A stretch of 64,000 nt of DNA from an uncultured Mediterraneibacter sp. (GTDB taxonomy: Bacteria; Bacillota; Clostridia; Lachnospirales; Lachnospiraceae): assembly GCA_944381935.1 (NCBI GenBank), contig CALWMN010000011.1, forward strand, positions 14,030 to 78,029, given 5' to 3'. The translations under genes and the position numbers were made by a program. The notes beneath the pieces are model-generated. The model had not been told where the DNA came from, ran no database searches, and was given only the letters and a program-made list of their open reading frames with translations. Below, in pieces: positions 14 to 17,559 of the stretch (position 1 is the first letter of the stretch; each line of letters opens with the position of its first letter).

Positions 14-32
14 TTGTAAATTGAATTGACAA
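14..32. promoter_or_regulatory. Candidate repressor operator TTGTAAA-ttgaa-TTGACAA overlapping the -35 of the GRE1 operon promoter
   Basis: Near-palindrome TTGTnAA-N5-TTnACAA; identical half-sites recur at 14747-14765 on the minus strand. Confidence 0.6.
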
Positions 33-54
33 AATATTTGTGTTCTGTTATATT
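26..54 (+). promoter_or_regulatory. Sigma70-type promoter for the activase-GRE1-kinase operon
   Basis: TTGACA(26-31)-17 bp-TATATT(49-54); AAGGAGG SD upstream of ATG 84. Confidence 0.75.
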
Positions 55-83
55 TTATTTAGAAGAAGACTAAGGAGGTAAGA

Positions 84-812
84 ATGGAGATCCGTATCTT
101 TCAAAAAGGATTCAATTTTTCACAGGACGGACCGGGCAACCGTCTGGTTTACCATCTGCAGGGGTGCAACATGCACTGTCCGTGGTGTTCCAATCCGGAA
201 GGACTGGCCATGCACGGCGGGACATCGTATTCGACAGAGGAACTGATGGATGAGATCCTCCGCAGCAGCCTGATGTTTTTTGACGGGGGCGGGATCACCC
301 TGACCGGCGGTGAAGTTACAATGCAGTTTGACGCCGCAGGAGAATTACTGAAGGCAGCGCACTCCTGTGCGATCCATACGTGTATTGAGACGAACGGGAC
401 ACATCCCCGTCTTCCCGAACTGTTTCCTTATATTGACCATCTCATTATGGACGTCAAACATTACGATCCCGAAAAACACAGGGAAACTACAGGCGTTTCC
501 TGCGAAAATACCTTTCGCAATATAGAGAAGGCGGCTAAAGCCGGCAAAACCCTCGCCCTGCGCATCCCGCTGATCGGCGGATTTAACGCTTCTACAGAAG
601 ATGCCAGGCATTTTTCGGACTTATTCCAAAGGATGCATCTGAAAGGATATGCGACGCTTGAGCTGCTCTGTTACCACGAATACGGGAAATCCAAATATGA
701 AAGCCTGAACCTTCCTTACCTGATGGATGATACCGCCTTTATTTCGGATGAGACCCTTCATGCCTTCCGGGATATCCTGGCAGATTCCGGCATGACGCTT
801 GTCAGTACATGA
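84..812 (+). CDS. Glycyl-radical enzyme activating enzyme (radical SAM), no ferredoxin insert
   Basis: DGPGNR motif, CxxxCxxC (CNMHCPWC), GGGITLTGGE, HTCIETNG, MDVKH, LRIPLIGGFN; directly upstream of a GRE. Confidence 0.93.
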   Translation: MEIRIFQKGFNFSQDGPGNRLVYHLQGCNMHCPWCSNPEGLAMHGGTSYSTEELMDEILRSSLMFFDGGGITLTGGEVTMQFDAAGELLKAAHSCAIHTCIETNGTHPRLPELFPYIDHLIMDVKHYDPEKHRETTGVSCENTFRNIEKAAKAGKTLALRIPLIGGFNASTEDARHFSDLFQRMHLKGYATLELLCYHEYGKSKYESLNLPYLMDDTAFISDETLHAFRDILADSGMTLVST

Positions 813-869
813 CAGGATTCTTCCGGCGGACAGAATCTCACAATTATAAAAAAGAAAGGAACATGACCT

Positions 870-3251
870 ATGTACAAACTTCCCACTCTGACCTGTGACC
901 TTATCACAGACAAAGCAAAAGCGCTCTACAAAGAAGAACGCACTGACCACAAGATCCTCAACGGCTGGTTTTTATCCCGCGAGATCGCCGCTTCGGCAGA
1001 CAGCGAAATGACAGAGACATTTCCTGAGCTGCGCGCCTCACTGGAGCTGAAGAAAATCGTAGAAGAGCTCCCCATCTCGATCAGCGGCAATGCCCTCCTT
1101 GCCGGAACCCAGCGGGATGCATTTGCGGCAAGCTATGCCCTGATCAACCCTGCCTTTGAAGTTGAGAGCTTCCGTGGTTACTGCGATCCCCTCGAGGTAT
1201 ATGACTACGCGACTCCCACCGGGGAGATAACCGCCGCACGGATCGCATCCATGAAAGAATATATGGCGCAGACCGACTGTGTAAAGGCGCTGGCAAAGGT
1301 GTATGAGGATAACAAAGAATATACCGACGAAGTCGCCTTTTTCGTTGAACAGGTGACCGGGCATATGATCCCGGATTTCCGTCCGGCGCTTCGCAATGGC
1401 GTGAAAGCGCTGGCAGAAGAGATTGAGAAGAAATTATCCGATGATTCTTGGAACCTGTCCGAAACTCAGCGGAAGAACCTGGCTGCCATGAAGCAGAGCC
1501 TGGAATGTGCAGTCCTTCTCGCACACCGGTATGCAGACCTGGCGGCAGAGCAGGCGCTGTCCGCCCCGCCGGAACGTGCAGAGGAACTCCGCGCAATGGA
1601 GGCGAACCTGCGCCGCGTTCCCGAATACGGGGCGCGCTCCCTCTGGGAAGCCCTGCAGTCTTATGTTATACTGTGGGAGGTGATGTGCCTGGAACAGGCA
1701 CCGAACCCGTTTGCCTTTTCTGTAGGGAACGCTGACAGGATCTTCGAGCCTTACAGGGCGATGGATGGCCTGCCACGGGAGGATGCCGCCGCTTTGTTCA
1801 AGCATTTCCTCGTGTTCTACAATGTCGGGGAGCGCTCCTGGGCGATCTCCCAGAACATCCTGCTCGGCGGACGTGACCTTCAGGGAAATGACCTTACAAA
1901 TCCGATGACTTACGCCATCCTTGACGCCTACTATGACATGAACCTTCCCCAGCCCATTCTGTCCGTAAAGCTGCACCGGAACACACCCGAGGCCTTTTAT
2001 GAGGAAATGGGGCGGTTTCTGTTTACGCCCGGCTGCCTTACCCCTTCCTTTTTTAACGACGACAGCCTGTTTGAGACACTCAGAGAACACGGCATCGAGG
2101 AGGCGGACCTGCCCGACTATTCTGTGGCAGGCTGCCAGGAGCCTCTGATCATGGGGAAAGATAACGGAAATACGACGAATAGCTGGCTGAACCTGGGAAA
2201 GATCCTGGAACTGACCGTCTCGGGCGGCAGGTCCGCCCTGACCGGAAAACCGATTGGACCGCAGGCCTCCTTTGAGGCGGAGGATCTGCTTGGTCATATA
2301 CAGGAGCTTTTCTATAAAAATGTAGAATTTTTCGCCAAAAAAATGTGCATCGCGGCAAACCGCGCCACGGAAGCCTTATCCCTTATGCCCGTCCCGTTTT
2401 TGAGCTGTTTTATGGGCGGACCGGAGACCGGATACGACACCCGGGACGTCAGGCGCAAAGGAACGAAATACAGCGGAAGCGGATGCCTCATCCACGGATT
2501 ATCCGTGGTTGCCGATTCTTTCGCCGCGGTCTCTCATCTGCTCAAGGACCGCCCGGAAGATGCGCAGAGGCTGATTGACGCCTGCGCCTCCGACTTTGAA
2601 GGGGAAGAAGAGCTTCTGGCATATGTGAAGTCCTGCCCGAAATACGGCAACAACTGCCCTGAGGTGGATCTTCTTGCGGCAGAGATCGTCGACCGGGTAT
2701 CTGAGATCGTACGCAGCCAGAAAAACATGCTGGGGGAAGATTTCCGCCCGGACTGGAGCACGCCCTCCACCCATCTCCTGTACGGCTACTGGGTCGGGGC
2801 AACCCCTGACGGGAGAAGAAGCCGGGAAATGCTCAACTATGGCGTCGACCCGCTGTTTGGGACAGCCGGGAACGGGCTGGGGTTCCGCACGGTCTCTACC
2901 CTCCAGCTTCCATACGGGCAGATGAACGGAGGCTGTGCCTCCCATTTTGGGATTGACCCGAAATATTTTACCGCAGAGGATTACCCGGGAAAAGGCGTTC
3001 AATTTTATAAACGGGTATTAAAACCTCTCTTCTTCAATCCCAAAAACAGCCGGCGCTCCCCCTTCTACCTGTACGTCAATGTGACGACGGCAGATACCCT
3101 GCGCGCTTTGCTGAAAGACCCGAAAAAATATGCCCCCAACGGGGTTTATATCATGCGTATCCACGGGACCTTCGTCAACTTCCTTGACCTCTCTCCCGCG
3201 ATCCAGCAGGATATCATCAAACGGCTCGACCCCGGCTCCACTTCCTGCTGA
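870..3251 (+). CDS. Glycyl radical enzyme (PFL-like fold, not PFL), 793 aa, substrate unknown
   Basis: Cys loop DYSVAGCQEP (Cys422), KYGNN, TPDGR, C-terminal Gly loop MRIHGTFVNF (Gly766) followed by LSPAIQQDIIKR; single Cys rather than the PFL Cys-Cys pair. Confidence 0.88.
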   Translation: MYKLPTLTCDLITDKAKALYKEERTDHKILNGWFLSREIAASADSEMTETFPELRASLELKKIVEELPISISGNALLAGTQRDAFAASYALINPAFEVESFRGYCDPLEVYDYATPTGEITAARIASMKEYMAQTDCVKALAKVYEDNKEYTDEVAFFVEQVTGHMIPDFRPALRNGVKALAEEIEKKLSDDSWNLSETQRKNLAAMKQSLECAVLLAHRYADLAAEQALSAPPERAEELRAMEANLRRVPEYGARSLWEALQSYVILWEVMCLEQAPNPFAFSVGNADRIFEPYRAMDGLPREDAAALFKHFLVFYNVGERSWAISQNILLGGRDLQGNDLTNPMTYAILDAYYDMNLPQPILSVKLHRNTPEAFYEEMGRFLFTPGCLTPSFFNDDSLFETLREHGIEEADLPDYSVAGCQEPLIMGKDNGNTTNSWLNLGKILELTVSGGRSALTGKPIGPQASFEAEDLLGHIQELFYKNVEFFAKKMCIAANRATEALSLMPVPFLSCFMGGPETGYDTRDVRRKGTKYSGSGCLIHGLSVVADSFAAVSHLLKDRPEDAQRLIDACASDFEGEEELLAYVKSCPKYGNNCPEVDLLAAEIVDRVSEIVRSQKNMLGEDFRPDWSTPSTHLLYGYWVGATPDGRRSREMLNYGVDPLFGTAGNGLGFRTVSTLQLPYGQMNGGCASHFGIDPKYFTAEDYPGKGVQFYKRVLKPLFFNPKNSRRSPFYLYVNVTTADTLRALLKDPKKYAPNGVYIMRIHGTFVNFLDLSPAIQQDIIKRLDPGSTSC

Positions 3252-3316
3252 GCCGCCGTCCGCCTCCCGCGGGGAACACTGCCAGAGTTCTGCCGCACAC
3301 CCAAATGCTGAAAACG

Positions 3317-3350
3317 GAAAAGCGAAGCCCATGCCCGGGCTCCGCTTTTC
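3317..3350 (+). terminator. Stem-loop between GRE1 and the kinase (attenuating terminator or mRNA stabiliser)
   Basis: GAAAAGCGAAGCCC / GGGCTCCGCTTTTC arms, 14 bp with one mismatch. Confidence 0.55.
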
Positions 3351-3407
3351 GGATATTATAATAGAAATGGACAGGAACGTTTCCGTGTCCATAGATTGGA
3401 GCAGATT

Positions 3408-4715
3408 ATGAAAACACTTGGCATTGATATCGGCACTACAACGATCAGCGCTGTTGTCCTGGAAGCAGGCAGAGTGGTTTCTTCCCTCACAGTGGCAAAC
3501 GATTCATTTATCGAGACCGGGCACACCTGGGAAAAGATCCAGGATCCGGGGAGGATTCTGGATGCTGCGCTTTCTCTCGTCAGTGAATTGACCGGGGAAC
3601 ACCCGGACACCGAACGGATCGGCGTCACGGGACAGCAGCACGGGATTCTCTATCTGGACAGGAGCGGGGAACCCGTCAGCCCCCTTTATACCTGGCAGGA
3701 CGGCCGCGGCAGCCTGCCATACAAAGGAGAGAAAAGCTACGCCTCATATCTGTCAGAGGCATCCGGCGAGCGCCTCTCCACCGGATTTGGGCTGGTCACG
3801 CATTTCTATAACAGGAAAAACGGACTCGTCCCTGAAACGGCGGTTGTCTTTTGTACGGTCGCGGACTATACTGCCATGAAGCTGTCCGGTTTGAAGACGC
3901 CGGCTGTACATCCCAGCAATGCGGCAAGCTTCGGGCTGTTCGACCTGAAGCTTCAGGATTTCCGCAGGGATATCCTCACAGAAACAGGGATAGATCCCTC
4001 CATCCTCCCTCCAGCCGCTGTATCAGCGTGCATCGGCATGTACCGGGATACCATACCGGTTTATACCGCCATAGGGGATAACCAGGCAAGCTTCCTGGGC
4101 TCCACACAGGGAGCAGAGAACTGTATGCTGGTCAATATCGGAACGGGGGCACAGGTTTCCGTCTACTCCAGAAATTACATCCGGTGCGAATCCCTGGAAA
4201 CACGACCGTTCCTGGATCACGATTATCTGCTCGCCGGCTCGTCCCTCTGCGGTGGAAAAGCGTACGCGCTGCTGGAGACATTTTTCCGAAAAACTGCCGA
4301 GATGGCCCTGGGACATCCTGTCAGGGACTGCTATGCTGCCATGTCCCATATGCTGGATCTGTACCCGGAGCCTGACAATCTACCCGTGATGGAACCCTTC
4401 TTCCAGGGCACGCGCATCGAACCGGACCGCCGGGCATGCATAACCGGGCTGAGTCCTGAGAACTTCCTGCCCCTTCCCCTTATCTATGCCACGATGCACG
4501 GCATGGTAGAAGAACTCTATTCAATGTATGAAAGCTATATCAAAGCCGGGAACCCGGCACCATCTGTCCTGTACGGTTCCGGCAATGGGCTGAGGCTGAA
4601 TCCTCACCTGTGCAAAATTGCGGAAAGCCGTTTCCGTCTGCCTCTGACTCTCTCTGCCAACAAAGAGGAGGCTGCCTGCGGGGCAGCGCTCTTCGCCGAG
4701 AAAGCTGCACCATAA
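3408..4715 (+). CDS. FGGY-family carbohydrate kinase, sedoheptulokinase-like
   Basis: LGIDIGTT, GVTGQQHG, PLYTWQDGRG, STGFG, AIGDNQASFLG, VNIGTGAQVS; ORF track starts at TTG 3396, but ATG 3408 follows GGAG. Confidence 0.8.
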   Translation: MKTLGIDIGTTTISAVVLEAGRVVSSLTVANDSFIETGHTWEKIQDPGRILDAALSLVSELTGEHPDTERIGVTGQQHGILYLDRSGEPVSPLYTWQDGRGSLPYKGEKSYASYLSEASGERLSTGFGLVTHFYNRKNGLVPETAVVFCTVADYTAMKLSGLKTPAVHPSNAASFGLFDLKLQDFRRDILTETGIDPSILPPAAVSACIGMYRDTIPVYTAIGDNQASFLGSTQGAENCMLVNIGTGAQVSVYSRNYIRCESLETRPFLDHDYLLAGSSLCGGKAYALLETFFRKTAEMALGHPVRDCYAAMSHMLDLYPEPDNLPVMEPFFQGTRIEPDRRACITGLSPENFLPLPLIYATMHGMVEELYSMYESYIKAGNPAPSVLYGSGNGLRLNPHLCKIAESRFRLPLTLSANKEEAACGAALFAEKAAP

Positions 4716-4750
4716 CAAAAAGTCCGGGATCCATTTTCCCGGACTTTTTG
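4716..4750. terminator. Bidirectional intrinsic terminator between the two converging GRE operons
   Basis: Perfect 14-bp inverted repeat CAAAAAGTCCGGGA / TCCCGGACTTTTTG, 7-nt loop, A/T tracts on both sides. Confidence 0.9.
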
Positions 4751-4782
4751 CCATATTTTTTCTTTTCTTCTTTCGTGCAGCG

Positions 4783-5712
4783 TCAGATATCATGATATTT
4801 CCGTGACACATGTTCCGGTCTTGCGACCCGGAGGATGTCGTACCACTGCTCTCTTGTCATGCTGTACTTCAGGGCATTTACCGCGTACAGGACTCTCTCC
4901 TTTTTCCCGCTCCCGGTCACAGGGATCACAGTTACAGGGAGGCGGTACAGCCACGCGTACATAACTTCATCAATATTCCCGGCGCCGATCTCCTCCTGGA
5001 TCTCCTTTAAGACTCCGATTGTCTCCAAGTCATCCCGGCTTACATCTGCCCGGTGAAGCGCTCCCCCGCCCACGGGCGAATATGCCATAAGCGGTATTTT
5101 TCTCCTCAGGGCGTCCTCCTGGGTCCCGTCAGCGAGAAAATCCATGCATTTTACACTCATCTGCACCTGGTTGACCAGGAGAGGAATCCCTGTATATGCC
5201 TCCAGTGCTGCCATCTGTTCCGGCAGGAAATTGGATACCCCAAACTTCCTGACCTTTCCGTCCCTGTAAAGCTTATCCATCGCTTCTGCCACCTCGGCGG
5301 GATCCATCAGCGGACACGGCCTGTGGATCAGATACAGATCCACGTGGTCTGTTTTCAGCCGCTTCAGGGATGCCTCGCAGGCAGAGACCAGATGCTCCTT
5401 TGACAGATTATAGGATTCGCTTACAAAGTAAGGCCGTCTGAGCGTATCGTATACGATACCGCCTTTCGTGACAATCTCAATCTTATTCCTTAAGGATGGT
5501 TCCTGTTCAAGTATTTCACCAAACAGCGCCTCGCATCCTCCCTTGCCGTAAATATCTGCGAAATCATAGGTGGTCAGCCCCAGCCCCAGGTACTCGTGGA
5601 GGCGCCCAGAAAGCTCTTTTGGATCCAGCCCCCACTCAAGAAGATTCATCATCCCGATTGTTACCGGCGCCAGGCTTAACTCCTGGTCTAATCTGATTTT
5701 TTCCATTTCCAT
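4783..5712 (-). CDS. Aldo/keto reductase (YdhF/YcsN-like)
   Basis: DFADIYG, IVTKGG, DLYLIHRP, GVSNF, VNQVQMS, MAYSPVGGG; AKR Asp/Tyr/Lys/His tetrad present. Confidence 0.9.
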   Translation of the reverse strand: MEMEKIRLDQELSLAPVTIGMMNLLEWGLDPKELSGRLHEYLGLGLTTYDFADIYGKGGCEALFGEILEQEPSLRNKIEIVTKGGIVYDTLRRPYFVSESYNLSKEHLVSACEASLKRLKTDHVDLYLIHRPCPLMDPAEVAEAMDKLYRDGKVRKFGVSNFLPEQMAALEAYTGIPLLVNQVQMSVKCMDFLADGTQEDALRRKIPLMAYSPVGGGALHRADVSRDDLETIGVLKEIQEEIGAGNIDEVMYAWLYRLPVTVIPVTGSGKKERVLYAVNALKYSMTREQWYDILRVARPEHVSRKYHDI

Positions 5713-5765
5713 TTCTCCTTATCTGCTTATCATTGAAGATCAGCCATATTTTTTCCCGGCTTTCC

Positions 5766-6611
5766 CTAAAGGATTTTGTACTTTACGCCCGCCTTCTCAA
5801 ATGCATCCGCCGGGATTGGCGGGATGTAGTTATCCCCGTCCACATCCCGGAGCGGGTACTCCATCCCTGCCATGACATACTTCGCCCCGGCAAAGGGATT
5901 GTACAAAAGAAACTCCACACGCTCCAGAGCCCCGGCTCCCGACAGCCTCTTAGCAAGCGCCCTTAAATTCTCCTCCCCGTCGTTTAGTCCCGGGATCAGG
6001 GGCATACGGATGAGGAAGGGTTTTTCCTGCGACAACAGGAACGACAGGTTCCTCTGGATCTGTTCATTCCCTTTCCCGGTCAGCTTTTTATGTATCCCGC
6101 TGTCCATGTGCTTGATGTCCAGATAGACCATCGAAGCCTTCTCTGTGACTTTACGGAAAATCTCTTCCTCCGTATAGCCGCAGGTCTCCACAATAGTATG
6201 CACTCCTGCAAGACCGTCCAGCAGCCCAAAGAGGAAGTCCGGCTGCATTGTCGGCTCCCCTCCGGATACCGTGACCCCGCCGCCCTCAAAGAACCGGACC
6301 TGTCCGGTCAGCTCCTGTGCCAGTTCCTCTGCGTCCATGCGCCTCCCTGCCACTTTGATGAGTCCCTGGGGGCATGCCCGGATGCACCGGCCAAAGGGCC
6401 GGCACTCCGGGTGGCTGCACGGCTGTCTGCATCTCCCACAGTGCGTGCAGCCATTTTCCGAAACCATAAGCTGGGGACGCACATCCATCCCCTCCGGGTT
6501 GTGGCACCACAGGCACCTTAACGGGCACCCCTTTAAGAATACCGTCGTGCGTATCCCGGGACCGTCATGTACGGCAAACTCCTTGATATCAAAAACAATC
6601 CCTGTCGCCAT
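5766..6611 (-). CDS. Glycyl-radical enzyme activating enzyme with ferredoxin-like insert
   Basis: HDGPGIRTTVFLKGCPLRCLWCHNPE, insert CTHCGRC...C and CRPFGRCIRACP, GGGVTVSGGEP; immediately downstream of GRE2. Confidence 0.95.
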   Translation of the reverse strand: MATGIVFDIKEFAVHDGPGIRTTVFLKGCPLRCLWCHNPEGMDVRPQLMVSENGCTHCGRCRQPCSHPECRPFGRCIRACPQGLIKVAGRRMDAEELAQELTGQVRFFEGGGVTVSGGEPTMQPDFLFGLLDGLAGVHTIVETCGYTEEEIFRKVTEKASMVYLDIKHMDSGIHKKLTGKGNEQIQRNLSFLLSQEKPFLIRMPLIPGLNDGEENLRALAKRLSGAGALERVEFLLYNPFAGAKYVMAGMEYPLRDVDGDNYIPPIPADAFEKAGVKYKIL

Positions 6612-6624
6612 GCAGAACCCTCCC

Positions 6625-8667
6625 TCAGACTGAGAAATTCTGCCGGGAGATCACATGGTCCTGGTACTCCCGGTCCAGTTCCACAAAGTAGGCGCTCCAT
6701 CCCCAGATCCGCACGATCAGGTTCTTATATTTTTCCGGCTCCTTCTGGGCGGCAAGCAGCTTTTCCCTGTTCACGGCATTTAACTGCAACTGGTGCCCTC
6801 CGTGCCGGATGAACTGCTGTACAAGACGGGCCACTTTCCCCACTCCGTCCCCATCCCAGAACACGGTAGAATGGAACTCCATCGTCAGGGGACCTCCGTT
6901 CACCACACGTGTGAAATCCGGCTTTGTAAAGGATTCGATGACTGACAGGGGTCCTTTGCTCTTTACGAACAGTTCCGGGGCATAGTTTGCGGAAAAGGCT
7001 TCCCCTTTCCTGTGTCCGCTTAAGGTATCGTCCACCTGGTCTGCATACCAGAGATAATACATCGCCGAGCCTGTCCCTGCCCGGACGCATCCGCCCCGCC
7101 CATTCCTTAAGCCCTTTACCGCCTCCCCGAAGTCGTTCAGCAGGCGCACTGCCAGTTCATTCGTGATGGCATTGTTGTCCCCGAATTTCGGCTCCCGGTA
7201 GCGCAGGAATGTCAGGAGGTCTTCCTCTCCCTTCCCTCGTACCACATCCTCTGCCTGCCCTTTCGTGATCTCACCCGTGCCGTATACGGATGCCTGGACT
7301 ACTGCCAGGGAGTCCACCGCCGTGGAGATCCCCACCCCGTGGAAGCCATAATTATTATATCTGCCCCCCAGCGATATGTCCCGGCGCCTCTCCACGCATC
7401 CGTCCATCAGGAGGGACATGAATGGCGCGGGGATCATGTAAAGGTCATGGATGGAGGCGTTGATCCTTTCACACTCCCGCCCCAGCCGTTCCCGGAACTT
7501 CCCGTAAAAGCTCTCAAAATCCGGGGCCCCTTCCAGGTCTTCCAGGACGGCGTCATTGACCAGCCGGGGGAAGTTGACTGCCCCGATATTGGGAATATCC
7601 ATCCCCACCTTCGGCACGATAAACTCCCAGCACGCCGCCACCACATAATCCCGGGCGTCCTCCTCCGCATACCCGCATCCAACAAGTCCCTTTATGACGA
7701 CGTCATCGTTACAGTACTGGGGGAATCCCAATCCCGCCTTTGTAAGCTCCGTCCCCTTCTCATACACTTCTATGGGCGTTTCGCTCCCGGCCCTGATGTT
7801 GATCTTCGGGTCGATCACCTGAAGTTCCCGGGACGCCTCCAGGCACAGCTTAAGAAGCAGGGAATACACTTCTTTCCCGTCCGCTCCCATGCCGCCCAGC
7901 ACCATGCTCTGGCCGTTGTCCCCCTGCTGGATCCCCGGGTACAGGTCACTGTCCCGGTTAAAGGTCAGGAAAAACTCTTCTATCAGCTCCAGGGCCGACT
8001 CCTCATCCAGACGCCCTGCCTCCATGTCCGCCTTGAAATACGGGGCCATGTACTGGTCAAACCTTCCCACTGTATTGTGGTATTCCCCCTCACACCACAG
8101 CGTGAAGTGCAGGATCCGGAAAAACTGCAGTGCCTCCCGGAAAGTCCGCGCTCCCTTATGGGGCACCCTTGCCAGGGTCTCTGCTGCCGCCCTGTTGCCG
8201 GCTTTCTCCGCGGCAGCACGGTACCGACCTGCCAGGCCAAGCACCGCGTCAATGGACCGGATGACACAGCGCAGGAACACGGTCTGGGTTTTATCCGCCC
8301 CTTCCAGCATACGGGCGGCATTTTCCCGCTCCTTGTCCAGTCCGTTTTGGATGACCCTCCCGTAATCCGGCGAGATGTTGCAGACCCTTCCCTGCTCATG
8401 GATGAAATGTGTTTCTTTGATCTTTTCCCATTCTTCATCTGTATAGACGGGAGGCAGCCCGCGCACCGTACGGGTATAGACGATGGTCTCATCGGGCAGT
8501 ATGGGCGGCTCCTCCGCTTCCAGCACCTGGCAGAGCCTCTCTGTCACGCGCTCCATATCCGTAAGCCCTGCCAGCGTCTCTGCCGGCGGGAACTGCCCTT
8601 CTTTGCGGTACCCGTGGTGGTCGCCCCTGCGGGATGCCTCCAGCATCCTTCTGATCCTTTCTTTCAT
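6625..8667 (-). CDS. Glycyl radical enzyme (PFL-like fold, not PFL), compact 680 aa, substrate unknown
   Basis: GRFDQY, GFPQY, Cys loop DYVVAACWEF (Cys346), PKFGDNN, HQLQLN, Gly loop LIVRIWGWSAYF (Gly656). Confidence 0.92.
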   Translation of the reverse strand: MKERIRRMLEASRRGDHHGYRKEGQFPPAETLAGLTDMERVTERLCQVLEAEEPPILPDETIVYTRTVRGLPPVYTDEEWEKIKETHFIHEQGRVCNISPDYGRVIQNGLDKERENAARMLEGADKTQTVFLRCVIRSIDAVLGLAGRYRAAAEKAGNRAAAETLARVPHKGARTFREALQFFRILHFTLWCEGEYHNTVGRFDQYMAPYFKADMEAGRLDEESALELIEEFFLTFNRDSDLYPGIQQGDNGQSMVLGGMGADGKEVYSLLLKLCLEASRELQVIDPKINIRAGSETPIEVYEKGTELTKAGLGFPQYCNDDVVIKGLVGCGYAEEDARDYVVAACWEFIVPKVGMDIPNIGAVNFPRLVNDAVLEDLEGAPDFESFYGKFRERLGRECERINASIHDLYMIPAPFMSLLMDGCVERRRDISLGGRYNNYGFHGVGISTAVDSLAVVQASVYGTGEITKGQAEDVVRGKGEEDLLTFLRYREPKFGDNNAITNELAVRLLNDFGEAVKGLRNGRGGCVRAGTGSAMYYLWYADQVDDTLSGHRKGEAFSANYAPELFVKSKGPLSVIESFTKPDFTRVVNGGPLTMEFHSTVFWDGDGVGKVARLVQQFIRHGGHQLQLNAVNREKLLAAQKEPEKYKNLIVRIWGWSAYFVELDREYQDHVISRQNFSV

Positions 8668-8670
8668 ATG

Positions 8671-9531
8671 CTATAAAATACTGCCGGCAAGCAGGCGCAT
8701 TTTATGTTCCGCGTACTCAGCAAGATCCTTATATGCCTGGGCGTACAGGTTGGCAACCGAATAGCCGAATCCTTCCTGCTGCTGGACGGCCGCTGTTGCC
8801 TTCCCCACGATCTTGACCAGATCTGTGGCAAGGTTCAGCTTTGTGATCCCGTATTTCACCGCTTCTGCCACCTTCTCTTCCGGAGTCCCGGAACCGCCGT
8901 GCATAACAAGCGGGATGGATACCTTTTCTGAAATTTTCTGCAGCCTGGGGATATTAATGCGGGGCGGGAAGCGGTATTCTCCATGTACAGTCCCGATGGA
9001 AAGGGCAAGGATATCCACACCGGTCTGCTCTACAAACAGAGCCGCCTCATCAGGATCGGTCTGCATCGCTTCCGCCTCGTCCACAGACATCTTCTGCTCA
9101 GATCCTGCAATCCTGCCAAGCTCGCCTTCCACCGACACACCGGCTTTGTGTGCATACTCTACTACCTCTGCTGTCCTGGCTACATTTTCTTCAAACGGAT
9201 AAGACGACGCATCGATCATCACAGAGCGGAAGCCGGCATCAATGGCTCTCTTAATGCTCTCGAAATCGCGGAAGTGATCTGCGTGAAGGATCACCGGCAC
9301 ATCCACATTTTCTGCAACTGTCCTTGCCGCTGCAACTGCGTTCCTCTCCCCTCCGAAAAACTTCACCTCTGCATCTCCGATGATATACAGCATCGGAAGT
9401 TTTAATCTCTGGGCAACTTCAGCTATGGACATTCCATAAGCATAATTCCAGAAGCAGAACCCGCCCAGGGCATATTTCCTTTCTCTTGCATCTACAAGAT
9501 ATTCTTTTAAAGCATTCAATTCTTTTGCCAT
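8671..9531 (-). CDS. Class II (metal-dependent) ketose-phosphate aldolase
   Basis: HADH, MIDAS, EGELG, SIGTVHG, LVMHGGSG, KLNLATD; N-terminal FCFWN replaces FNxxN and there is no C-terminal DPR motif. Confidence 0.88.
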   Translation of the reverse strand: MAKELNALKEYLVDARERKYALGGFCFWNYAYGMSIAEVAQRLKLPMLYIIGDAEVKFFGGERNAVAAARTVAENVDVPVILHADHFRDFESIKRAIDAGFRSVMIDASSYPFEENVARTAEVVEYAHKAGVSVEGELGRIAGSEQKMSVDEAEAMQTDPDEAALFVEQTGVDILALSIGTVHGEYRFPPRINIPRLQKISEKVSIPLVMHGGSGTPEEKVAEAVKYGITKLNLATDLVKIVGKATAAVQQQEGFGYSVANLYAQAYKDLAEYAEHKMRLLAGSIL

Positions 9532-9535
9532 CGTA

Positions 9536-10492
9536 TTATTCTCCTTTGTTGTTTTTCAGCAATTGTAATACCTGTGATTTGTCTTTCAGCGCAGTCAGCG
9601 CTCCCTGCTGTGTCACGCTGACGCCTGCCACTGCGTTTGCATACCGGGCAGCGTCCCATATATCCATGTTTTCAGCCGTCAGTCCGGCCATGAACCCTCC
9701 GACGAAGCTGTCGCCTGCTCCGGTGGTATCCCGCACATATTCTGTCTGTGCCGGCGGGAAGACCTCTTCCTGCTTCCCGTCTGTCACATAACACCCCTCT
9801 TTTCCAAGCTTAATGATGACATTCCCACAACCTTTGTCCAGGAAGATCCGGGACATTTTCCCGGGGTCTTTTTCTGACGTAAGATACGCTGCCTCCACAT
9901 AACTGGGAATAAAATAATCGATCAGCGGCAGATTGCGAAAGACAATGTCCCTGCCCTGTGAAAACGAATCGTTCGCGCAGTCCGCAACCGTCAGTGCCCC
10001 CGCCTCTTTTGCCGTTCGGAAGATCTCTGTCACTCCCCCGGAATCAAGACCTTTCAGAAAGAAAAAGCTCCCATAGCTTACGACCGACGCCTGCCTGACA
10101 ATATCCAGGTCAAAGTCTTCCAGGCAGAAAGTCTGATTGTTGCTTCCCGCCCGCCCGAGAAAATGCCGGTCCCCATCCTTTCTCACCAGGGCAAATGTCA
10201 GGGACATGGTATCCTCTTTCGATCTCGTCACATTGGAAATATCGACGCCCGCCTTCTCAAACTCCCCGATTACGTAGTCGCTGAAGCTGTCCTGGCACAG
10301 TTTGCCTGCCGCAGCCGTCCTGCATCCTAACCTTGCGGCAGTAATGCTCTGTATCACCGCCGCTCCTCCAGGTGATGTCCCGACGCCCTGCAGCAGGGTC
10401 GTGTCACGGGAAAATACCGATTCATCCACAGTATACAGGGTCATGTCATATGCCATTGTTCCGATAGAGACAATATCATATTTTTTCTCCAT
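9536..10492 (-). CDS. PfkB/ribokinase-family sugar kinase
   Basis: SPGGAA, ARLG, PSYVEA, IKLGKEG, DTTGAGDSF; ATG 10492 follows GGGAG (ORF track start 10516). Confidence 0.92.
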   Translation of the reverse strand: MEKKYDIVSIGTMAYDMTLYTVDESVFSRDTTLLQGVGTSPGGAAVIQSITAARLGCRTAAAGKLCQDSFSDYVIGEFEKAGVDISNVTRSKEDTMSLTFALVRKDGDRHFLGRAGSNNQTFCLEDFDLDIVRQASVVSYGSFFFLKGLDSGGVTEIFRTAKEAGALTVADCANDSFSQGRDIVFRNLPLIDYFIPSYVEAAYLTSEKDPGKMSRIFLDKGCGNVIIKLGKEGCYVTDGKQEEVFPPAQTEYVRDTTGAGDSFVGGFMAGLTAENMDIWDAARYANAVAGVSVTQQGALTALKDKSQVLQLLKNNKGE

Positions 10493-10525
10493 ATTTTTCT
10501 GCTCCCGTCTTTTCATCAGAGTGTA

Positions 10526-11464
10526 TTACATGATCGGATATCCGGCGGAAAGGTAGATATCATACCAGTCCTCGTAAGTGAGCTCGATCTCTGACGCCCT
10601 GCAGCAGTCTGCAAATCTTTCCTGCTTCGTTGTTCCGCACACAACCTGCATCTGTGCGGGATGCCTTAAGATCCACGCCACTGCTATCGTCGTCTTGTTT
10701 ACCCCGTACTTGCCGCCGACTCTCTCCATCGCCTCGTTTAATTCTTTATAATCCGGGTTGTCGATAAATGTGCCGTCGATAAATCCATGCTGGAAGGGCG
10801 ACCACGCCTGGATCGTGATATCTTTTAACCGGCAGTAGTTCAGAATCCCGCCGTCCCGGTCTGATGCATAGAACTCATGTGTGTTCGTTGCGATCGGCTG
10901 TACGCACATATCCGCGTATGCGATGCTGAACTGCATCTGGTTCACTTCAATCGGAACGGAGCAGTATTTCTGGAGCAGCTCAATGCCGTAGGGCACCTCA
11001 TTGCTGACTCCAAAGTGGAGCACCTTTCCCTGTTTCTTCATGATGTCAAACGCCTCTGCCACTTCTTCCGGCTCAAACAGGGCGTCAGACCTGTGCAGCA
11101 GGAAATAGTCAAGATGGTCGGTCTTCATCCGCTCCAGGGAGTTGTCAAGCGTCTTTAACAGATGCTCTTTGGAATAATTATGGTAGGGCCTTCCGTCTGC
11201 CATGAAGGTAATGCCGCCCTTGGACTGGACGATAAGCTTATCTCTTAGTCCGGGGTTTTCAGCAAAGGTATTGCCGATAATGCTTTCCACAAGTCCCTCC
11301 GGCTTTCCGTAGCAGTTTGCCGTGTCAATAAAATTTGTGCCGTTTTCCATAGCGTTTTCAAACATTGCCGCCACTTCCTTGGTCGACATCGTGTCAAAGC
11401 GCATGGTTCCCTGGATCAGTGCAGGCACTTCGGTTTTGTTCTGCCCTAATTTGATTGTTTTCAT
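10526..11464 (-). CDS. Aldo/keto reductase (YcsN-like)
   Basis: FIDTANCYG, VQSKGG, DYFLLHR, FGVSN, VNQMQFS, IQAWSPFQHG. Confidence 0.9.
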   Translation of the reverse strand: MKTIKLGQNKTEVPALIQGTMRFDTMSTKEVAAMFENAMENGTNFIDTANCYGKPEGLVESIIGNTFAENPGLRDKLIVQSKGGITFMADGRPYHNYSKEHLLKTLDNSLERMKTDHLDYFLLHRSDALFEPEEVAEAFDIMKKQGKVLHFGVSNEVPYGIELLQKYCSVPIEVNQMQFSIAYADMCVQPIATNTHEFYASDRDGGILNYCRLKDITIQAWSPFQHGFIDGTFIDNPDYKELNEAMERVGGKYGVNKTTIAVAWILRHPAQMQVVCGTTKQERFADCCRASEIELTYEDWYDIYLSAGYPIM

Positions 11465-11504
11465 AAGTAAACCTCCTTGTACTTTTGTTCTGGCTTATGT
11501 TAAT

Positions 11505-12335
11505 TTAATTTTTCACAGCTCCCGCTGTCATTCCCGAAATAAAATATTTCTGGAAGAACAATACAATGACGATCACCGGCAGTGAACCGAGAATACTCAT
11601 CGCCATAATCTGGTTCCACTCAAAAGCATACTGTCCCATCAGGGATGCGATCCCGATCGGGACCGTGCGCATTTCATTGGTCCTTGTCAATGTCAGCGCA
11701 TACAGGTATTCATTCCAGCACTGGAAAAACGTATAAAGCCCTACCGATACAAGCCCCGGCACGCTGGACGGGACAAGCACGCCCCAGAGCGCCCTGAATC
11801 TGGATCCGCCGTCGATCAGCACGGCTTCATCCAGCTCTTTGGGCAGGGTGTTCATATATCCTGTCAGCATCAGGATCGCATAAGGCAATGTAAAGACAAT
11901 ATAGGTCAGGATCAGCGCCGGATAGCTGTCATATATCTTCAGCGTTACCACCAGGACCATGTACGGGATCAGCAGGGTGATCGGAGGTACAGCCTGGACA
12001 CTGATGATGACGGTGTTTAATATCTTCTTTCCCGGAAAATTAAACCGGCTGAAGCTGTACGCCGCCAGGAGCGCGATCACAAGCGTGCACGCCACGACGA
12101 CCGCCGCCACAAAGTAAGAGTTAAAGAAAAACCTTACCTTCTCCGGGTCTGTCAATATGTCGATATATGCATCGAAGCTGAAGCTTTCGTCTATGATCTT
12201 CGGCGGCGTAGCGAAAATATTCCGGTTCGACTTAAAGGAACTGGAAAGCAGCCAGAGAACCGGAAGTCCTGAGAACAATGCCGCTATGACCATACCTGCC
12301 AGCAGTAAAATTCGTTTTGCCAAACTTGTCTTCAT
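11505..12335 (-). CDS. Carbohydrate ABC transporter permease
   Basis: Multiple TM segments, EAA loop LPKELDEAVLIDGG. Confidence 0.93.
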   Translation of the reverse strand: MKTSLAKRILLLAGMVIAALFSGLPVLWLLSSSFKSNRNIFATPPKIIDESFSFDAYIDILTDPEKVRFFFNSYFVAAVVVACTLVIALLAAYSFSRFNFPGKKILNTVIISVQAVPPITLLIPYMVLVVTLKIYDSYPALILTYIVFTLPYAILMLTGYMNTLPKELDEAVLIDGGSRFRALWGVLVPSSVPGLVSVGLYTFFQCWNEYLYALTLTRTNEMRTVPIGIASLMGQYAFEWNQIMAMSILGSLPVIVIVLFFQKYFISGMTAGAVKN

Positions 12336-12347
12336 TCTCTCTCCCTC

Positions 12348-13262
12348 CTAGTCTTCTCTCGTCTGGTTTCTCACATAGAAGATCGCCAGCACGATACAGG
12401 CGAGCAGTATGATCACCGCTGCTGCAGAAGCCTGTGAATACTGGTAGCTTGTGAACGCCGTCTTATATACATACGTACTCATCATCTCCGTCGCATGGGA
12501 AGGTCCGCCGGCAGTCAGAAGCCATATCAGTGAAAAATTCTGTGTTGTCCAGATAAAATCCAGCATCGCAATGCTGATCAGGATTGGTTTTAACTGAGGA
12601 AGCGTAATATAGAAGAAACTCTGTACCGAAGACGCCCCGTCAATCTGCGCCGCTTCATACAAATCCGAAGAAATACCCTGAAGTCCGGCAAGAATACTGA
12701 TCATGTAAAACGGGTATCCCGCCCATATGTTAATAAACGTCAGGACCCAAAATACGATCGACCGGTCGCTGAGCCACTCCACAGGTCCCGCTATCATATT
12801 AAACTGTGAAAGGAGATAATTCACAACACCGTTCGCATTTAAAAGCAGCTTCCATAAAATCGCGACAACTGTCGCATTAAACATCCACGGCAGCATATAA
12901 ACCACACGGAACCCCGCTTTTACTCTTGAGCTGAAACACTTCACATTGACCATCAGCGCCAGCGCCATGCCGATCAGAAGGTGGAAGACCACATTGAGAA
13001 CAACAAATATTACTGTATTTTTTATGGAAGAAAGAAATACCCGGTCCGTCAGCACAGTTTTATAATTCTCAAGCCCTACCCATGTCGAATCGTTTGTAAT
13101 AAGTACATTGTCATAAAACGAATAACTGATGACCAATATGATCGGAAGCATCAGCAGCAGACACATCAGGATGACTACCGGCGACAGAAACAAGTACGGC
13201 TCAATCACTCTTCGCAGGCTCTTCTTTACTGGATATTTCGGTTTTTTATTTTTTGACCGCAT
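12348..13262 (-). CDS. Carbohydrate ABC transporter permease
   Basis: EAA loop DLYEAAQIDGAS, ITLPQLKP; ATG 13262 follows AAGGAG (ORF track start 13283). Confidence 0.93.
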   Translation of the reverse strand: MRSKNKKPKYPVKKSLRRVIEPYLFLSPVVILMCLLLMLPIILVISYSFYDNVLITNDSTWVGLENYKTVLTDRVFLSSIKNTVIFVVLNVVFHLLIGMALALMVNVKCFSSRVKAGFRVVYMLPWMFNATVVAILWKLLLNANGVVNYLLSQFNMIAGPVEWLSDRSIVFWVLTFINIWAGYPFYMISILAGLQGISSDLYEAAQIDGASSVQSFFYITLPQLKPILISIAMLDFIWTTQNFSLIWLLTAGGPSHATEMMSTYVYKTAFTSYQYSQASAAAVIILLACIVLAIFYVRNQTRED

Positions 13263-13380
13263 ATATAACTCCTTTTGTCCCAAATTATCCGTTGATTATA
13301 TGTGGGAAATATTATGATAGGCCTGGCGCGGCATCTGTGCCGGCCAAACCTATTGCCAAAATCATAGTCTGTCTCGTTTC

Positions 13381-14670
13381 TTACTCGTATGCTGCGTCAA
13401 ACTCCTGCTGGACAACTTCCATCATTTCCTCTGCCGTAGCATAATCTCCGTCGAGATACATAACCAGGTTTTCATCGAGCGTACGCATCAGCGCCTCGGC
13501 TGTCGGGAAGGAGTAGAACTCTGCAACACCTGTTGTGGTCGCATAAATGTCCTGGATTGCCTGGAAAGCTTCGGAATCATCCGTATATGCCGGCTCGGAT
13601 GCAGCGTTCACCGGGAATCCGCCTGCGTGAACACACAGATCCGCATTCACCTCTGCCCCGAGAAGATACTGGATGAACTGTGCAGCTTCCGTTTTGTGCT
13701 CGCTGTTCTCTGCAATTCCGCATGCCCAGTTGTTAGCTCTCATATAGCTCTGTCCGTCGTAGTCATCTTTATGGGGCATATTAATATAGGTAACATTCAT
13801 TTCCGGAGCCTGCTCCTGAATATTGGTCAGGTGTGCGACTGAGTCCGGCATAAATGCAATACGTCCGTTGACAAATTCCTGAACCTTATCAGCATCTGTC
13901 AGCGTATACATACCGGGAAGCGTTACGCCGTTGTCAAACAATGATTTGAAAAATTCTGTTGTCTCAATCCAGACCTCATTGCCAGCCAGGAATGGTTTTC
14001 CGTCATCCCCGATGATCGAACATCCCGAGTTCCATGCGAATGCAGCATAGTATTCCATACAGGTCGCATTGTCAGTGCTCATATTCATGCCAAATCCATA
14101 TACATTCTCATCTGGATTCGTCACCTGGATACACATATCCAGAAATTCGCTCCATGTTTCCGGCAGTTCGGTAATGCCCGCTTCTTCAAGGATATCCAGG
14201 TTTACTGCCATCAGGCACGGGAAATTCACGATCGGCTGTGCGTAAACTGTACCGTTAACCTCTGTCTGGCTGGAGATATCCGATGTGTCAAAGCCGATCT
14301 CTTCGTAAAGCGCCCCTAGGTCTGCAAGCATGCCCTGTGTCGCGTAGTCATAGATCCAGCCTCCGTCCAGCGCCACAACATCAGCCAGCGTTCCCGCCGC
14401 GGCACTCGCCTGCATCTGCGCCTGGGTATCCGCATACGGATTGCTGAGCAGCTCCACCCGGATACCGGTTTCCTCATAAAAGGCATCACACACGCTCTGG
14501 AGATATCCTTCATCCATCTCATTGTCAAACCACTGCTGAAATTCAATTACCACTTCGCCGTCAGAGCCCGCATCTTCTGTTTCGGAAGAGTCTCCTCCTG
14601 CTCCGCATCCTGCTATCAACGCCATAGACAACGACATTGTCAACAAAACCGAAACCATCTTTTTCATCAT
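13381..14670 (-). CDS. Sugar ABC transporter substrate-binding lipoprotein
   Basis: Signal peptide with lipobox LIAGC, acidic linker, family 1 SBP-like body; upstream of two permeases. Confidence 0.9.
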   Translation of the reverse strand: MMKKMVSVLLTMSLSMALIAGCGAGGDSSETEDAGSDGEVVIEFQQWFDNEMDEGYLQSVCDAFYEETGIRVELLSNPYADTQAQMQASAAAGTLADVVALDGGWIYDYATQGMLADLGALYEEIGFDTSDISSQTEVNGTVYAQPIVNFPCLMAVNLDILEEAGITELPETWSEFLDMCIQVTNPDENVYGFGMNMSTDNATCMEYYAAFAWNSGCSIIGDDGKPFLAGNEVWIETTEFFKSLFDNGVTLPGMYTLTDADKVQEFVNGRIAFMPDSVAHLTNIQEQAPEMNVTYINMPHKDDYDGQSYMRANNWACGIAENSEHKTEAAQFIQYLLGAEVNADLCVHAGGFPVNAASEPAYTDDSEAFQAIQDIYATTTGVAEFYSFPTAEALMRTLDENLVMYLDGDYATAEEMMEVVQQEFDAAYE

Positions 14671-14724
14671 TTTTGCATCCTCCTTTTTTCTTTTTCGCTG
14701 CAGCGGATTATTTTATTTATCCTC

Positions 14725-14753
14725 ATTATATTTTCATCATATTATTTTGTCAA
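14725..14753 (-). promoter_or_regulatory. Consensus sigma70 promoter for the ABC-AKR-PfkB-aldolase-GRE2 operon
   Basis: Minus strand TTGACA(14753-14748)-17 bp-TATAAT(14730-14725). Confidence 0.85.
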
Positions 14754-14765
14754 GTAATTTTACAA
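14747..14765. promoter_or_regulatory. Candidate repressor operator TTGTAAA-attac-TTGACAA (minus strand)
   Basis: Same half-sites and 5-nt spacing as 14-32; overlaps the -35. Confidence 0.6.
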
Positions 14766-16220: not shown

Positions 16221-16253
16221 TAATGGCGGCAACGATCTTTTCCACAAAAAAAG

Positions 16254-16302
16254 TCCCCGCAAGGAGCCACCTCTGCCTGTCAGGCATGGTTCCCTGCGGG
16301 GA
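16254..16302. terminator. Composite hairpin terminator between converging genes
   Basis: TCCCCGCAAGGAGCCA / TGGTTCCCTGCGGGGA with inner TGCCTG/CAGGCA, flanked by A and T tracts. Confidence 0.7.
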
Positions 16303-16322
16303 TATTTTCTTGTCCTATTCTG

Positions 16323-17216: not shown

Positions 17217-17298
17217 ATCCTTCCTCACATTTTTATCTGTTCCCTGTTCCCAACACCTGCTCTGACGCAAAAATGCGTATCAGCATTAATACTTTTTT

Positions 17299-17523: not shown

Positions 17524-17559
17524 CAAAGAAAAAAGCGTCGCTACAAAGGAGGTATTTCT

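Follow-up and report, generated by a model that had tools for sequence, protein, structure and literature searches.

What do two glycyl radical enzymes (GREs), each with an activase of its own, do in one sugar locus? The question is raised by positions 14–14765 of a 64,000-nt stretch of DNA from an uncultured Mediterraneibacter sp. (GCA_944381935.1, contig CALWMN010000011.1, positions 14,030 to 78,029 of the forward strand; hereafter the window). Two convergent operons there encode the GREs, their activases, an importer, kinases, reductases and an aldolase. An earlier note on this DNA had read the operons as a catabolic system with two radical steps and had not recognised the gene combination as a characterised pathway; on the second point our results agree with it. 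As to the first, we found that the system is a single predicted regulon with one core enzyme, GRE1, and an optional second one, GRE2, which has been recruited repeatedly. The locus points to an oxygen-free breakdown route for an unusual sugar, undescribed so far, in which two oxygen-sensitive radical enzymes stand under one repressor.

Two operons, a shared operator and the related loci

Coordinates are positions in the window. The gene map was obtained from the list of open reading frames (ORFs) and from Pfam and NCBIfam scans, which reproduced the gene order and content described before for both operons.

14–36, plus strand: operator O1 (predicted), TTGTAAATTGAATTGACAAAATA, overlapping the −35 hexamer of the activase–GRE1–FGGY promoter (operon 1)
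84–812, plus strand: activase 1, a GRE-activating radical S-adenosylmethionine enzyme, 242 aa
870–3251, plus strand: GRE1, a pyruvate formate-lyase (PFL)-like protein, 793 aa
3396–4715, plus strand: FGGY kinase, short form, about 435 aa
4716–4750, both strands: bidirectional intrinsic terminator, perfect 14-bp stem, 7-nt loop
4783–5712, minus strand: AKR_B, a YdhF-type aldo-keto reductase (AKR), last gene of operon 2
5766–6611, minus strand: activase 2, GRE-activating enzyme, 281 aa
6625–8667, minus strand: GRE2, a compact GRE, 680 aa as ORF
8671–9531, minus strand: class II ketose-(bis)phosphate aldolase
9536–10516, minus strand: PfkB-family sugar kinase
10526–11464, minus strand: AKR_A, aldo-keto reductase
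11505–12335 and 12348–13283, minus strand: two ATP-binding cassette (ABC) permeases of the binding-protein-dependent type
13381–14670, minus strand: extracellular solute-binding protein (SBP_bac_1/8)
14743–14765, minus strand: operator O2 (predicted), TTGTAAAATTACTTGACAAAATA, overlapping the −35 hexamer of the operon 2 promoter
14994–16220, plus strand: ADP-dependent glucokinase/PFK-family kinase (ADP-GK-like), divergent from operon 2
16323–17270, minus strand: RpiR/SIS regulator
17404–18423, plus strand: second class II aldolase

The promoter of operon 1 has its hexamers at 26–31 and 49–54, and that of operon 2 is a perfect consensus promoter (14753–14725). The same box, TTGTAAA-N5-TTGACAAAATA, lies over the −35 hexamers of both. 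When the window was searched with up to three mismatches, four matches were obtained against 0.09 expected by chance, and the strict motif occurs three times in the whole 3.04-Mb genome. In its family-wide form, TTGT[A/C]AA-N5-TTGACAA, the palindrome was also found 5′ of the GRE1 operons in the related loci L010, L011, L004, L013, L014 and L023, with a ROK gene present in six of the six; the box upstream of GRE1 operons recurs wherever a neighbouring ROK (NagC/Mlc-type) repressor gene exists. In L010 it stands in addition 5′ of the operon of the solute-binding protein, where the 19-mer core TTGTAAAATTACTTGACAA is identical and occupies the same place as O2. The ROK gene of our locus, missed before, lies just upstream of the window in divergent orientation, and its product can be aligned to NagC and Mlc from residue 20 (143 and 135 bits, under the equivalog cut-offs). 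Because one conserved predicted operator is common to both promoters, the two operons are, as judged from the sequence, one regulon under the ROK repressor.

The two transcription units are divided by the terminator, which had already been described as perfect and bidirectional: its 14-bp stem was found again, with the arms CAAAAAGTCCGGGA and TCCCGGACTTTTTG, an A-run at one flank and a T-run at the opposite one, and it begins immediately past the FGGY stop codon. The true start of the FGGY kinase is possibly a few codons 3′ of the TTG at 3396, and GRE2 probably starts at M8 (position 8646), which would give a protein of 673 aa. The three genes at 14994–18423 are conserved partners of the locus that had not been noticed earlier.

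To follow the locus through other genomes, a GRE1-centred survey (36 loci, several phyla) was complemented by a survey anchored on the PfkB kinase. The set of GRE1, kinase, aldolase, AKR and ABC importer was found in four other loci from three further lineages (L010; L128; L129/L130; L131), all of which retain the solute-binding protein, the permeases, AKR_A, the PfkB kinase, the aldolase, AKR_B and activase–GRE1–FGGY. L128 is a near-identical relative of the window, and L010 has a GRE1 that is 77% identical and the same convergent layout. In L129/L130, which belong to an abundant species, all these genes are joined in a single co-directional operon; likewise in L131, from a metagenome-assembled genome of Oscillospiraceae, with a different gene order. 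The ADP-GK-like gene keeps its position in L010, L128 and L129, and the RpiR regulator and the second aldolase lie beside it in L128 and L129/L130. The ABC/aldolase operon and GRE2 had been taken for chance neighbours of GRE1 in the first, GRE1-centred survey, and this was given up after PfkB anchoring had revealed L128, L129/L130 and L131.

The co-occurrence of both GREs, the kinases and the aldolase, which the earlier note had put forward as a check, was thus seen for the GRE1-containing set but not for GRE2: together with activase 2, GRE2 is absent from the syntenic loci L010 and L129/L130. The GRE1/GRE2 pair does recur in L131, in another gene order and with a GRE2 of another subclade. Two obligatory radical steps, as proposed earlier, do not agree with the loci that lack GRE2 and its activase, nor with the existence of the PfkB–aldolase–AKR_B trio in operons that have no GRE.

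Such GRE-free operons were found in L133/L134 and L135, where orthologues of PfkB, aldolase and AKR_B (49–75% identity; AKR_B 67–69%) are accompanied by a different ABC system and a DeoR regulator; no GRE, AKR_A, FGGY or ADP-GK-like gene was found in L133–L135. Because the trio also exists in these operons, it is, on the evidence of gene content, a portable lower module. The aldolase is 71–88% identical in every related operon, GRE or no GRE, whereas the solute-binding protein is 72–97% identical in the GRE-containing loci and 26–27% in the GRE-free ones. The genes of the upper module co-vary, namely the specific ABC importer, AKR_A, activase–GRE1–FGGY and the ADP-GK-like kinase, and the importer and AKR_A were found only together with GRE1. 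We also observed that the GRE-free trio of L135 (2822–4801, a Blautia schinkii-like contig) has an ABC system with an α-L-fucosidase as its neighbour, a context that fits a lower module handling a 6-deoxy-ketose or lactaldehyde. In L129/L130 (12813–17573) the GRE1-type activase has 291 aa and a Cys-rich insert, and the PfkB kinase was present in 343 collection blocks; this species would be a good experimental model.

The locus is rarely met. No PfkB orthologue was detected in 399 evenly sampled genomes of the class, and among 60 relatives (36 of them species of the same genus) a single genome had GRE1 and no genome had GRE2; so rare a pathway is hardly caught by sampling at the species level. 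The genome of the window, from chicken gut, is 99.9% complete. It contains one other PFL-like gene, a true PFL, and no class I mannose-6-phosphate isomerase (PMI) when searched with TIGR00218 and by tblastn with the GRE1-linked cupin. Genes for bacterial microcompartment (BMC) shells, which the earlier note had not seen in the sequence, are absent from the whole genome, and none for sulfite handling were seen in the locus, as had been stated previously; likewise, no aldehyde dehydrogenase or 1,3-propanediol dehydrogenase gene is present in the locus. An IS200-like (Y1 transposase) gene lies at contig C11:9304-10113, about 4 kb upstream of the ROK gene and near the core genes proS and recO; together with the near-absence of GRE1 and GRE2 from the 36 species of the same genus, it fits an acquired island. 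A link to apiose or rhamnogalacturonan-II through a nearby GH140-like locus was also considered, and no evidence for it was found.

The two glycyl radical enzymes and their families

GRE1 carries its catalytic cysteine in the loop AGCQEP (Cys422, with Glu424), and its glycine loop reads MRIHGTF (Gly766); both are invariant in 26 family members. Among the stretches invariant in the family are TGHxIPDF, AGCQEPLIMG and GVYIMRIHGTFVNFL, and in the AGCQEPLIMG and YIMRIHGTFVNF loops the GRE1 of the window is the same as the rest of its clade, to whose members it is 56–84% identical. The glycine loop is non-canonical: compared with the fingerprint RVxG[FWY], RIHGT has no aromatic residue, no match to the Pfam Gly_radical domain was obtained, and AF2 confidence at the loop was below 50. 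In HMMER alignments, the glycine of this loop nevertheless coincides with the radical glycine of glycerol dehydratase. The family is large (more than 120 clusters at ≥70% identity, with proteins of about 791 aa throughout), and not one of its clusters matches Gly_radical. We considered whether GRE1 could be an aminoacyl radical enzyme with the glycine replaced by Ala, Ser or Thr; this was rejected, as the radical glycine is retained and invariant, and the same holds for Gly656 of GRE2.

In GRE2 the cysteine loop is AACWEF (Cys346, invariant in 68 family members) and the glycine loop VRIWGWS contains the canonical RIWGW (Gly656; 65 bits to PF01228); the family-wide pattern LIVRxWGWS is invariant. 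Both enzymes thus show the single cysteine of the C-x-E loop that is found in GRE eliminases and isomerases (GC422QE and AC346WE), and not the Cys-Cys pair of PFL, just as had been noted from the sequence before. The PFL-like domain PF02901 was matched by both, GRE1 scoring 360 bits and GRE2 281. The AF2 model of GRE1 had a predicted template-modelling (pTM) score of 0.83 and template-modelling (TM) scores of about 0.77 to solved GREs. For GRE2 the predicted local distance difference test (pLDDT) score was 91.5, with TM scores of 0.84–0.88 to GRE eliminases and isomerases. The fold searches, with TM scores of 0.72–0.88 throughout, did not separate dehydratase-like from isomerase-like models. 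The GRE2 model is confident and superposes on all the eliminases and isomerases; therefore, as far as the model tells, the compact size of GRE2 is a family trait and not a truncation. A search with GRE2 gave at least 120 clusters of about 680–690 aa with 52–76% identity.

Each activase has a CX3CX2C cluster motif. Activase 1 has the motif CNMHCPWC and no ferredoxin-like Cys insert (TIGR02494, 188 bits; cut-off 174); activase 2 has the motif CPLRCLWC and does contain a ferredoxin-like Cys-rich insert (258 bits against the same cut-off). With invariant loops, predicted GRE folds and an activase each, both enzymes look catalytically intact.

Their placement was examined next to the known families. 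In a joint alignment, glycerol dehydratase, PflD and YbiW were mutually 37–42% identical (YbiW and PflD, 39%), whereas GRE1 and GRE2 were 23–28% identical to these three and 23% identical to each other. In the maximum-likelihood tree each of the two lies on its own long branch (support 100/100). Their best solved relatives are the B12-independent glycerol dehydratase and the propanediol dehydratase 9rco, which belongs to the GRM3 type (PMC12756279); PflD, HplG, CutC and HypD come next, at similar distances. The scores for the PflD model NF007437 (GRE1 169 and GRE2 215 bits; cut-off 1109) and for TIGR01774 (254 and 269 bits; cut-off 678) were far too low for membership. Similarly, HypD, CutC, HpsG/HpfG, IslA, the decarboxylases and PFL were rejected, with all scores far under the NCBIfam cut-offs. 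The two enzymes do not belong with YbiW/PflD (24–25% identity, PflD-model scores far under the cut-off, separate clades), and neither the TIGR01774 scores nor the substrate-binding residues place them with the glycerol/propanediol dehydratases. The reading of both as non-PFL enzymes in the earlier note was borne out, and on these sequence comparisons both GREs are in conserved clades without a characterised member.

The active-site residues were compared with those of glycerol dehydratase. GRE1 keeps His164 (His165 in GRE1) and the equivalents of Cys433 and Glu435, and has Phe in place of His281, Ala in place of Ser282 and Thr in place of Asp447. GRE2 has an invariant Asn at the His164 position, and His281 is the only substrate-binding residue that it keeps. 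The Tyr339 loop is deleted in both. We also noticed that the two clades share two deletions relative to glycerol dehydratase, PflD and YbiW, one of four residues before the His164 position and one of five including Tyr339 (158–161 and 335–339 in glycerol dehydratase); despite the 23% identity, these may reflect a deeper common ancestry or a similarly remodelled pocket.

According to a recent review of GREs (PMC13450708, 2026), all eliminases and isomerases keep the CXE motif, a few dozen enzymes are characterised, whole clades have no assignment, and YbiW and PflD are the only sugar-acting GREs listed. Text searches of the literature returned nothing on either GRE clade and no coupling of 'glycyl radical' with FGGY; glycyl radical combined with GH127 gave unrelated work only, and no 2025–26 preprint on a new sugar GRE was found.

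The conserved core of the GRE1 family is a regulator (AraC-type or ROK) with activase–GRE1–FGGY: a gene of the activase 1 type adjoins GRE1 in 26 of the 36 surveyed loci and an FGGY kinase directly follows it in 27. The other neighbours vary (GH32 four times, GH43 three times), and most GRE1-family loci, about 30, lack GRE2, the aldolase and the AKRs and have a PMI-like cupin in their place. A full-length, non-orthologous kinase (26% identity) stands after GRE1 in L129; it passes the XylB equivalog cut-off with 452 against 380 bits. Since the FGGY kinase has been replaced there by one of XylB type, it seems that GRE1 requires a kinase like xylulokinase, but not one of a particular descent. XylB of E. 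coli also phosphorylates 1-deoxy-xylulose.

The GRE2 family has other company. In 83 loci the recurrent partners were the activase, a major facilitator superfamily sugar transporter, LacI/GntR regulators and GH127 glycosidases. No kinase recurs at these loci, which suggests a free sugar as the substrate of the family. Most GRE2-family loci have no GRE1, kinase or aldolase, and the closest relatives (72–75% identity, Yeguia-type) are stand-alone GRE–activase pairs beside a LacI regulator. In the window the pair sits between the aldolase and AKR_B. The G+C content at third codon positions (GC3) is 0.70–0.72 in GRE2 and activase 2 (activase 2, 0.70) against 0.54–0.62 in the flanking genes, and the spacer after activase 2 (5713–5765; also 8668–8670) holds a short relic, GAAAGCCGGGAAAAAATAT...AAGGAGAAATGG, that resembles the 3′ end of the L010 aldolase gene and the ribosome-binding site of AKR_B. 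The raised GC3 and the relic of the aldolase 3′ end suggest that GRE2 and activase 2 are an inserted cassette. In L131, a GRE2-type enzyme lies directly upstream of activase–GRE1, and in the family tree it belongs to another, well-supported subclade than the GRE2 of the window. Two GRE2 lineages have been recruited into GRE1 operons, at different positions, which favours a functional link over accident.

Two further observations concern the GRE2 family. At residues 545–556 or so, the GRE2s of the window, L001 and L008 read (T/A)LSGH, where nearly all GREs, other GRE2s included, have TPDGR or ASPDGR; as the subclade conserves (T/A)LSGH, this has the look of a functional variant and not of decay. 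In L002/L003 (411–12933), a GRE2-family enzyme (54% identity) ends an operon with a DeoC-like aldolase, a PfkB kinase and RbsD/FucU; the same operon encodes a GFO/IDH/MocA oxidoreductase, a xylose-isomerase-like TIM barrel, an ABC importer and a GH127 protein. The arrangement hints at a deoxy-sugar kinase/aldolase route that is supplied by some GRE2-type enzymes and follows a hydrolase of the β-L-arabinofuranosidase family.

A candidate pathway and its competitors

The remaining enzymes of the locus were compared with known proteins. The PfkB kinase aligns with E. coli YdjH from end to end at 31% identity, and nothing else in the PDB matches it below 1e-20. For the aldolase the identity to YdjI is 37%, likewise over the full length, and the fructose-bisphosphate aldolase and GatY models give it nearly the same score. 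In E. coli, YdjH is a ketose C1-kinase and YdjI a ketose-1-phosphate aldolase that releases dihydroxyacetone phosphate (DHAP). AKR_B matches YdhF with 223 bits. The best NCBIfam match of AKR_A is the methylglyoxal reductase YdjG, a weak one (84 bits); the AKRs are 24–32% identical to YdjG over partial length only, and in PDB searches they found only enzymes of no known function (YdhF-type, aryl-alcohol dehydrogenase). For the FGGY kinase, glycerol kinases were the only PDB matches, and these were weak (E about 5e-9).

In known GRE eliminases and isomerases a carbinol hydrogen is abstracted, the loop Glu deprotonates and a neighbouring substituent is expelled, which gives an α-deoxy carbonyl compound (PMC13450708). 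Starting from the observed gene set, conservation, modularity, shared operator and catalytic motifs, we infer the chemistry, the order of the steps and the substrate as follows. With a probability of roughly 0.5, the locus is one ROK-controlled regulon of three modules by which a neutral sugar derivative is imported and catabolised anaerobically. Once the glycyl radical had been installed, Cys422 and Glu424 of GRE1 would abstract a carbinol hydrogen and expel the neighbouring ring ether oxygen or hydroxyl, so that a free, unphosphorylated sugar derivative would become an α-deoxy ketose. GRE1 would probably act before phosphorylation, and the xylulokinase-like FGGY kinase would trap the deoxy-ketose by phosphorylating its terminal primary hydroxyl. 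The class II aldolase would then cleave the ketose phosphate to a triose phosphate and a C3 carbonyl compound (hydroxyacetone, lactaldehyde or methylglyoxal), and AKR_B would reduce the C3 fragment, probably to 1,2-propanediol, which would be excreted. GRE2 and its activase would be an optional add-on that most likely admits a second isomer or a related free sugar; that the two GREs handle two isomers in parallel, as the earlier note had also considered, is possible.

Our leading guess for the substrate is an anhydrohexitol, 1,5-anhydroglucitol or 1,5-anhydromannitol, which could be imported or made from 1,5-anhydrofructose by AKR_A. It would be converted to 1-deoxyfructose and 1-deoxyfructose-6-phosphate, and the aldolase would give glyceraldehyde-3-phosphate (G3P) and hydroxyacetone, the latter going to 1,2-propanediol. 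Three precedents speak for this version. In E. coli, YbiW and PflD open anhydrohexitol phosphates to 1-deoxyfructose-6-phosphate, from which an aldolase produces G3P and hydroxyacetone (PMC13450708); 1,5-anhydroglucitol can be phosphorylated by ADP-glucokinase, and 1,5-anhydrofructose is the substrate of a reducing AKR (PMC12441222). We would give this particular substrate about half the chance of the general scheme.

Several points weigh against the scheme or its anhydrohexitol version. The kinases are in surplus: no single anhydrohexitol route can require all three of FGGY, PfkB and the ADP-GK-like enzyme. Pairs of the YdjH/YdjI type make ketose-1-phosphates and DHAP, which does not fit a 1-deoxy ketose. 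The two GREs are no closer to YbiW/PflD (24–25%) than to the diol dehydratases. In the GRE1 model, the Cys and Gly loops and residues 633–676 are precisely the parts with low confidence. In 22 of the 36 GRE1 loci a partner is a class-I PMI-like cupin, which a 1-deoxy-ketose product leaves unexplained. The third exact copy of TTGTAAA-N5-TTGACAA lies at the promoter of an unrelated mobile element (contig C26:17964-17982; L006 8965–8983, minus strand) that has an excisionase-like helix-turn-helix gene, MobA/MobL and an integrase; this copy may reflect nothing but the architecture of a strong promoter, met by chance, or may be an operator that was captured. Finally, the runs that contained the locus were chicken-gut DNA runs only.

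A wider reading can be offered tentatively, with more doubt than confidence: GRE1 and GRE2 would catalyse novel radical C–O cleavages on free sugars or polyols and, with the portable trio, would form a 'radical deoxygenation' branch apart from the anhydroglycolysis of YbiW/PflD, GRE2s being recruited repeatedly to widen the substrate range. Examples would be the CH2–O ring opening of pyranoses or anhydro-alditols and the dehydration of alditols to 1-deoxy-ketoses.

It seems unlikely that the locus instead follows a ketohexose-1-phosphate route. In this alternative, PfkB or FGGY would phosphorylate C1 and a GRE would open the pyranose at C6H2–O to 6-deoxy-5-ketofructose-1-phosphate or an epimer. 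Either AKR_A would then reduce C5 before the aldolase released DHAP and lactaldehyde, or the aldolase would directly release DHAP and methylglyoxal; the AKRs would lead on to 1,2-propanediol, and the two GREs would serve two epimeric ketoses. Such a route would use the PfkB kinase and the aldolase in the way of their best-matching relatives, the C1-kinase YdjH and the ketose-1-phosphate aldolase YdjI, and would employ both AKRs, AKR_A with its weak match to YdjG. The α-L-fucosidase beside the GRE-free trio of L135 would fit a lower pathway from 6-deoxy-ketose to lactaldehyde, and the PMI-like cupin of other GRE1 loci could make the ketose from an aldose. However, no GRE with a hemiketal sugar as its substrate is known. 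On this route a common sugar that is easy to ferment would be deoxygenated at the cost of one or two NAD(P)H, and toxic methylglyoxal could be set free; the dedicated solute-binding protein, conserved at 72–97% and confined to GRE loci, argues for an unusual substrate and not a common ketose; and the XylB-type kinase of L129 acts on the terminal carbon, not on C1.

With a smaller chance again, GRE1 could be a downstream diol dehydratase: the trio would make glycerol or 1,2-propanediol from the imported sugar, GRE1 would dehydrate it as an electron sink, and the FGGY kinase would be a glycerol-kinase-like branch. The best sequence and fold matches of GRE1, glycerol dehydratase and the GRM3 propanediol dehydratase, speak for this, as do the retained equivalents of His164, Cys433 and Glu435 and the glycerol kinases that were the sole, weak PDB matches of FGGY. 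The glycerol-binding residues are lost, though (His281, Ser282 and Asp447 replaced, the Tyr339 loop deleted), and the TIGR01774 score of GRE1 is 254 bits against a cut-off of 678. The genome has no BMC shell genes and the locus no aldehyde or 1,3-propanediol dehydrogenase, and GRE1 co-varies with the importer and AKR_A rather than with the lower module, which also exists GRE-free.

Chance adjacency of a GRE1 trio and an ABC/GRE2 operon serving different substrates is the least probable of all: most GRE1 loci indeed have no operon-2 genes, most GRE2 loci no GRE1, kinase or aldolase, and both enzymes look accessory among the 60 relatives, but the same conserved operator stands at both promoters, the trio is fused with the ABC, PfkB, aldolase and AKR genes in one operon in L129/L130 and L131, and the importer and AKR_A occur only with GRE1.

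New GRE functions are rare, and in the regulon proposed here two unassigned clades meet in a context that constrains the chemistry unusually well: repressor and operator are defined, the dedicated binding protein is open to ligand screening, the products of the trio can be assayed, and natural variants with one, two or no GRE provide built-in controls. Solving the locus would probably also assign a function to the GRE1–FGGY module of many gut and rumen anaerobes from several phyla.

Comparison with known systems

The closest parallel is the anhydroglycolysis of E. coli (YbiW/YbiY, PflD/PflC, FsaA/B and GldA; Ma et al., JACS 2024, as summarised in PMC13450708 and PMC12441222). Like the locus, it has two C-x-E GREs with their own activases and a link to sugar uptake, an aldolase that yields a triose phosphate and a C3 carbonyl compound (as proposed for the locus), a reductase for the fragment and no BMC shell genes. 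It differs in uptake, which goes through a phosphotransferase system in E. coli and through an ABC importer with soluble kinases (FGGY, PfkB, ADP-GK-like) in the locus; in the aldolase, which is of the Fsa type in E. coli and a class II metal enzyme here; and in the reductase, GldA there and AKRs here. In addition, YbiW and PflD act on phosphates, whereas the substrate of GRE1 is probably not yet phosphorylated.

Glycerol dehydratase (C. butyricum, 1r8w) and the propanediol dehydratases (5i2a, 9rco) are the best sequence and fold matches of both GREs and share the C-x-E loop with them; the general acid His164 of glycerol dehydratase has its equivalent in GRE1 and is Asn in GRE2. However, the identity is 28%, substrate-binding residues are changed and two active-site loops are shorter in the enzymes of the locus. 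Unlike the glycerol and propanediol dehydratase systems, the locus has no BMC or aldehyde-processing gene, and its context is one of sugar genes.

The ydjGHI cluster of E. coli has the same trio of PfkB kinase, class II aldolase and AKR. The Zn-dehydrogenases YdjJ/YdjL of that cluster are missing from the locus, the GREs are missing from the E. coli cluster, and AKR_B is of the YdhF type.

Finally, the widespread, uncharacterised activase–GRE1–FGGY(–PMI-like cupin) module of gut and rumen anaerobes has a GRE1 of the same clade, a ferredoxin-less activase and an FGGY kinase as the next gene. In contrast to that module, the genome with our locus has no PMI-like cupin, and the locus brings GRE1 together instead with an ABC importer, two AKRs, a YdjH/YdjI-like pair, an ADP-GK-like kinase and a second GRE.

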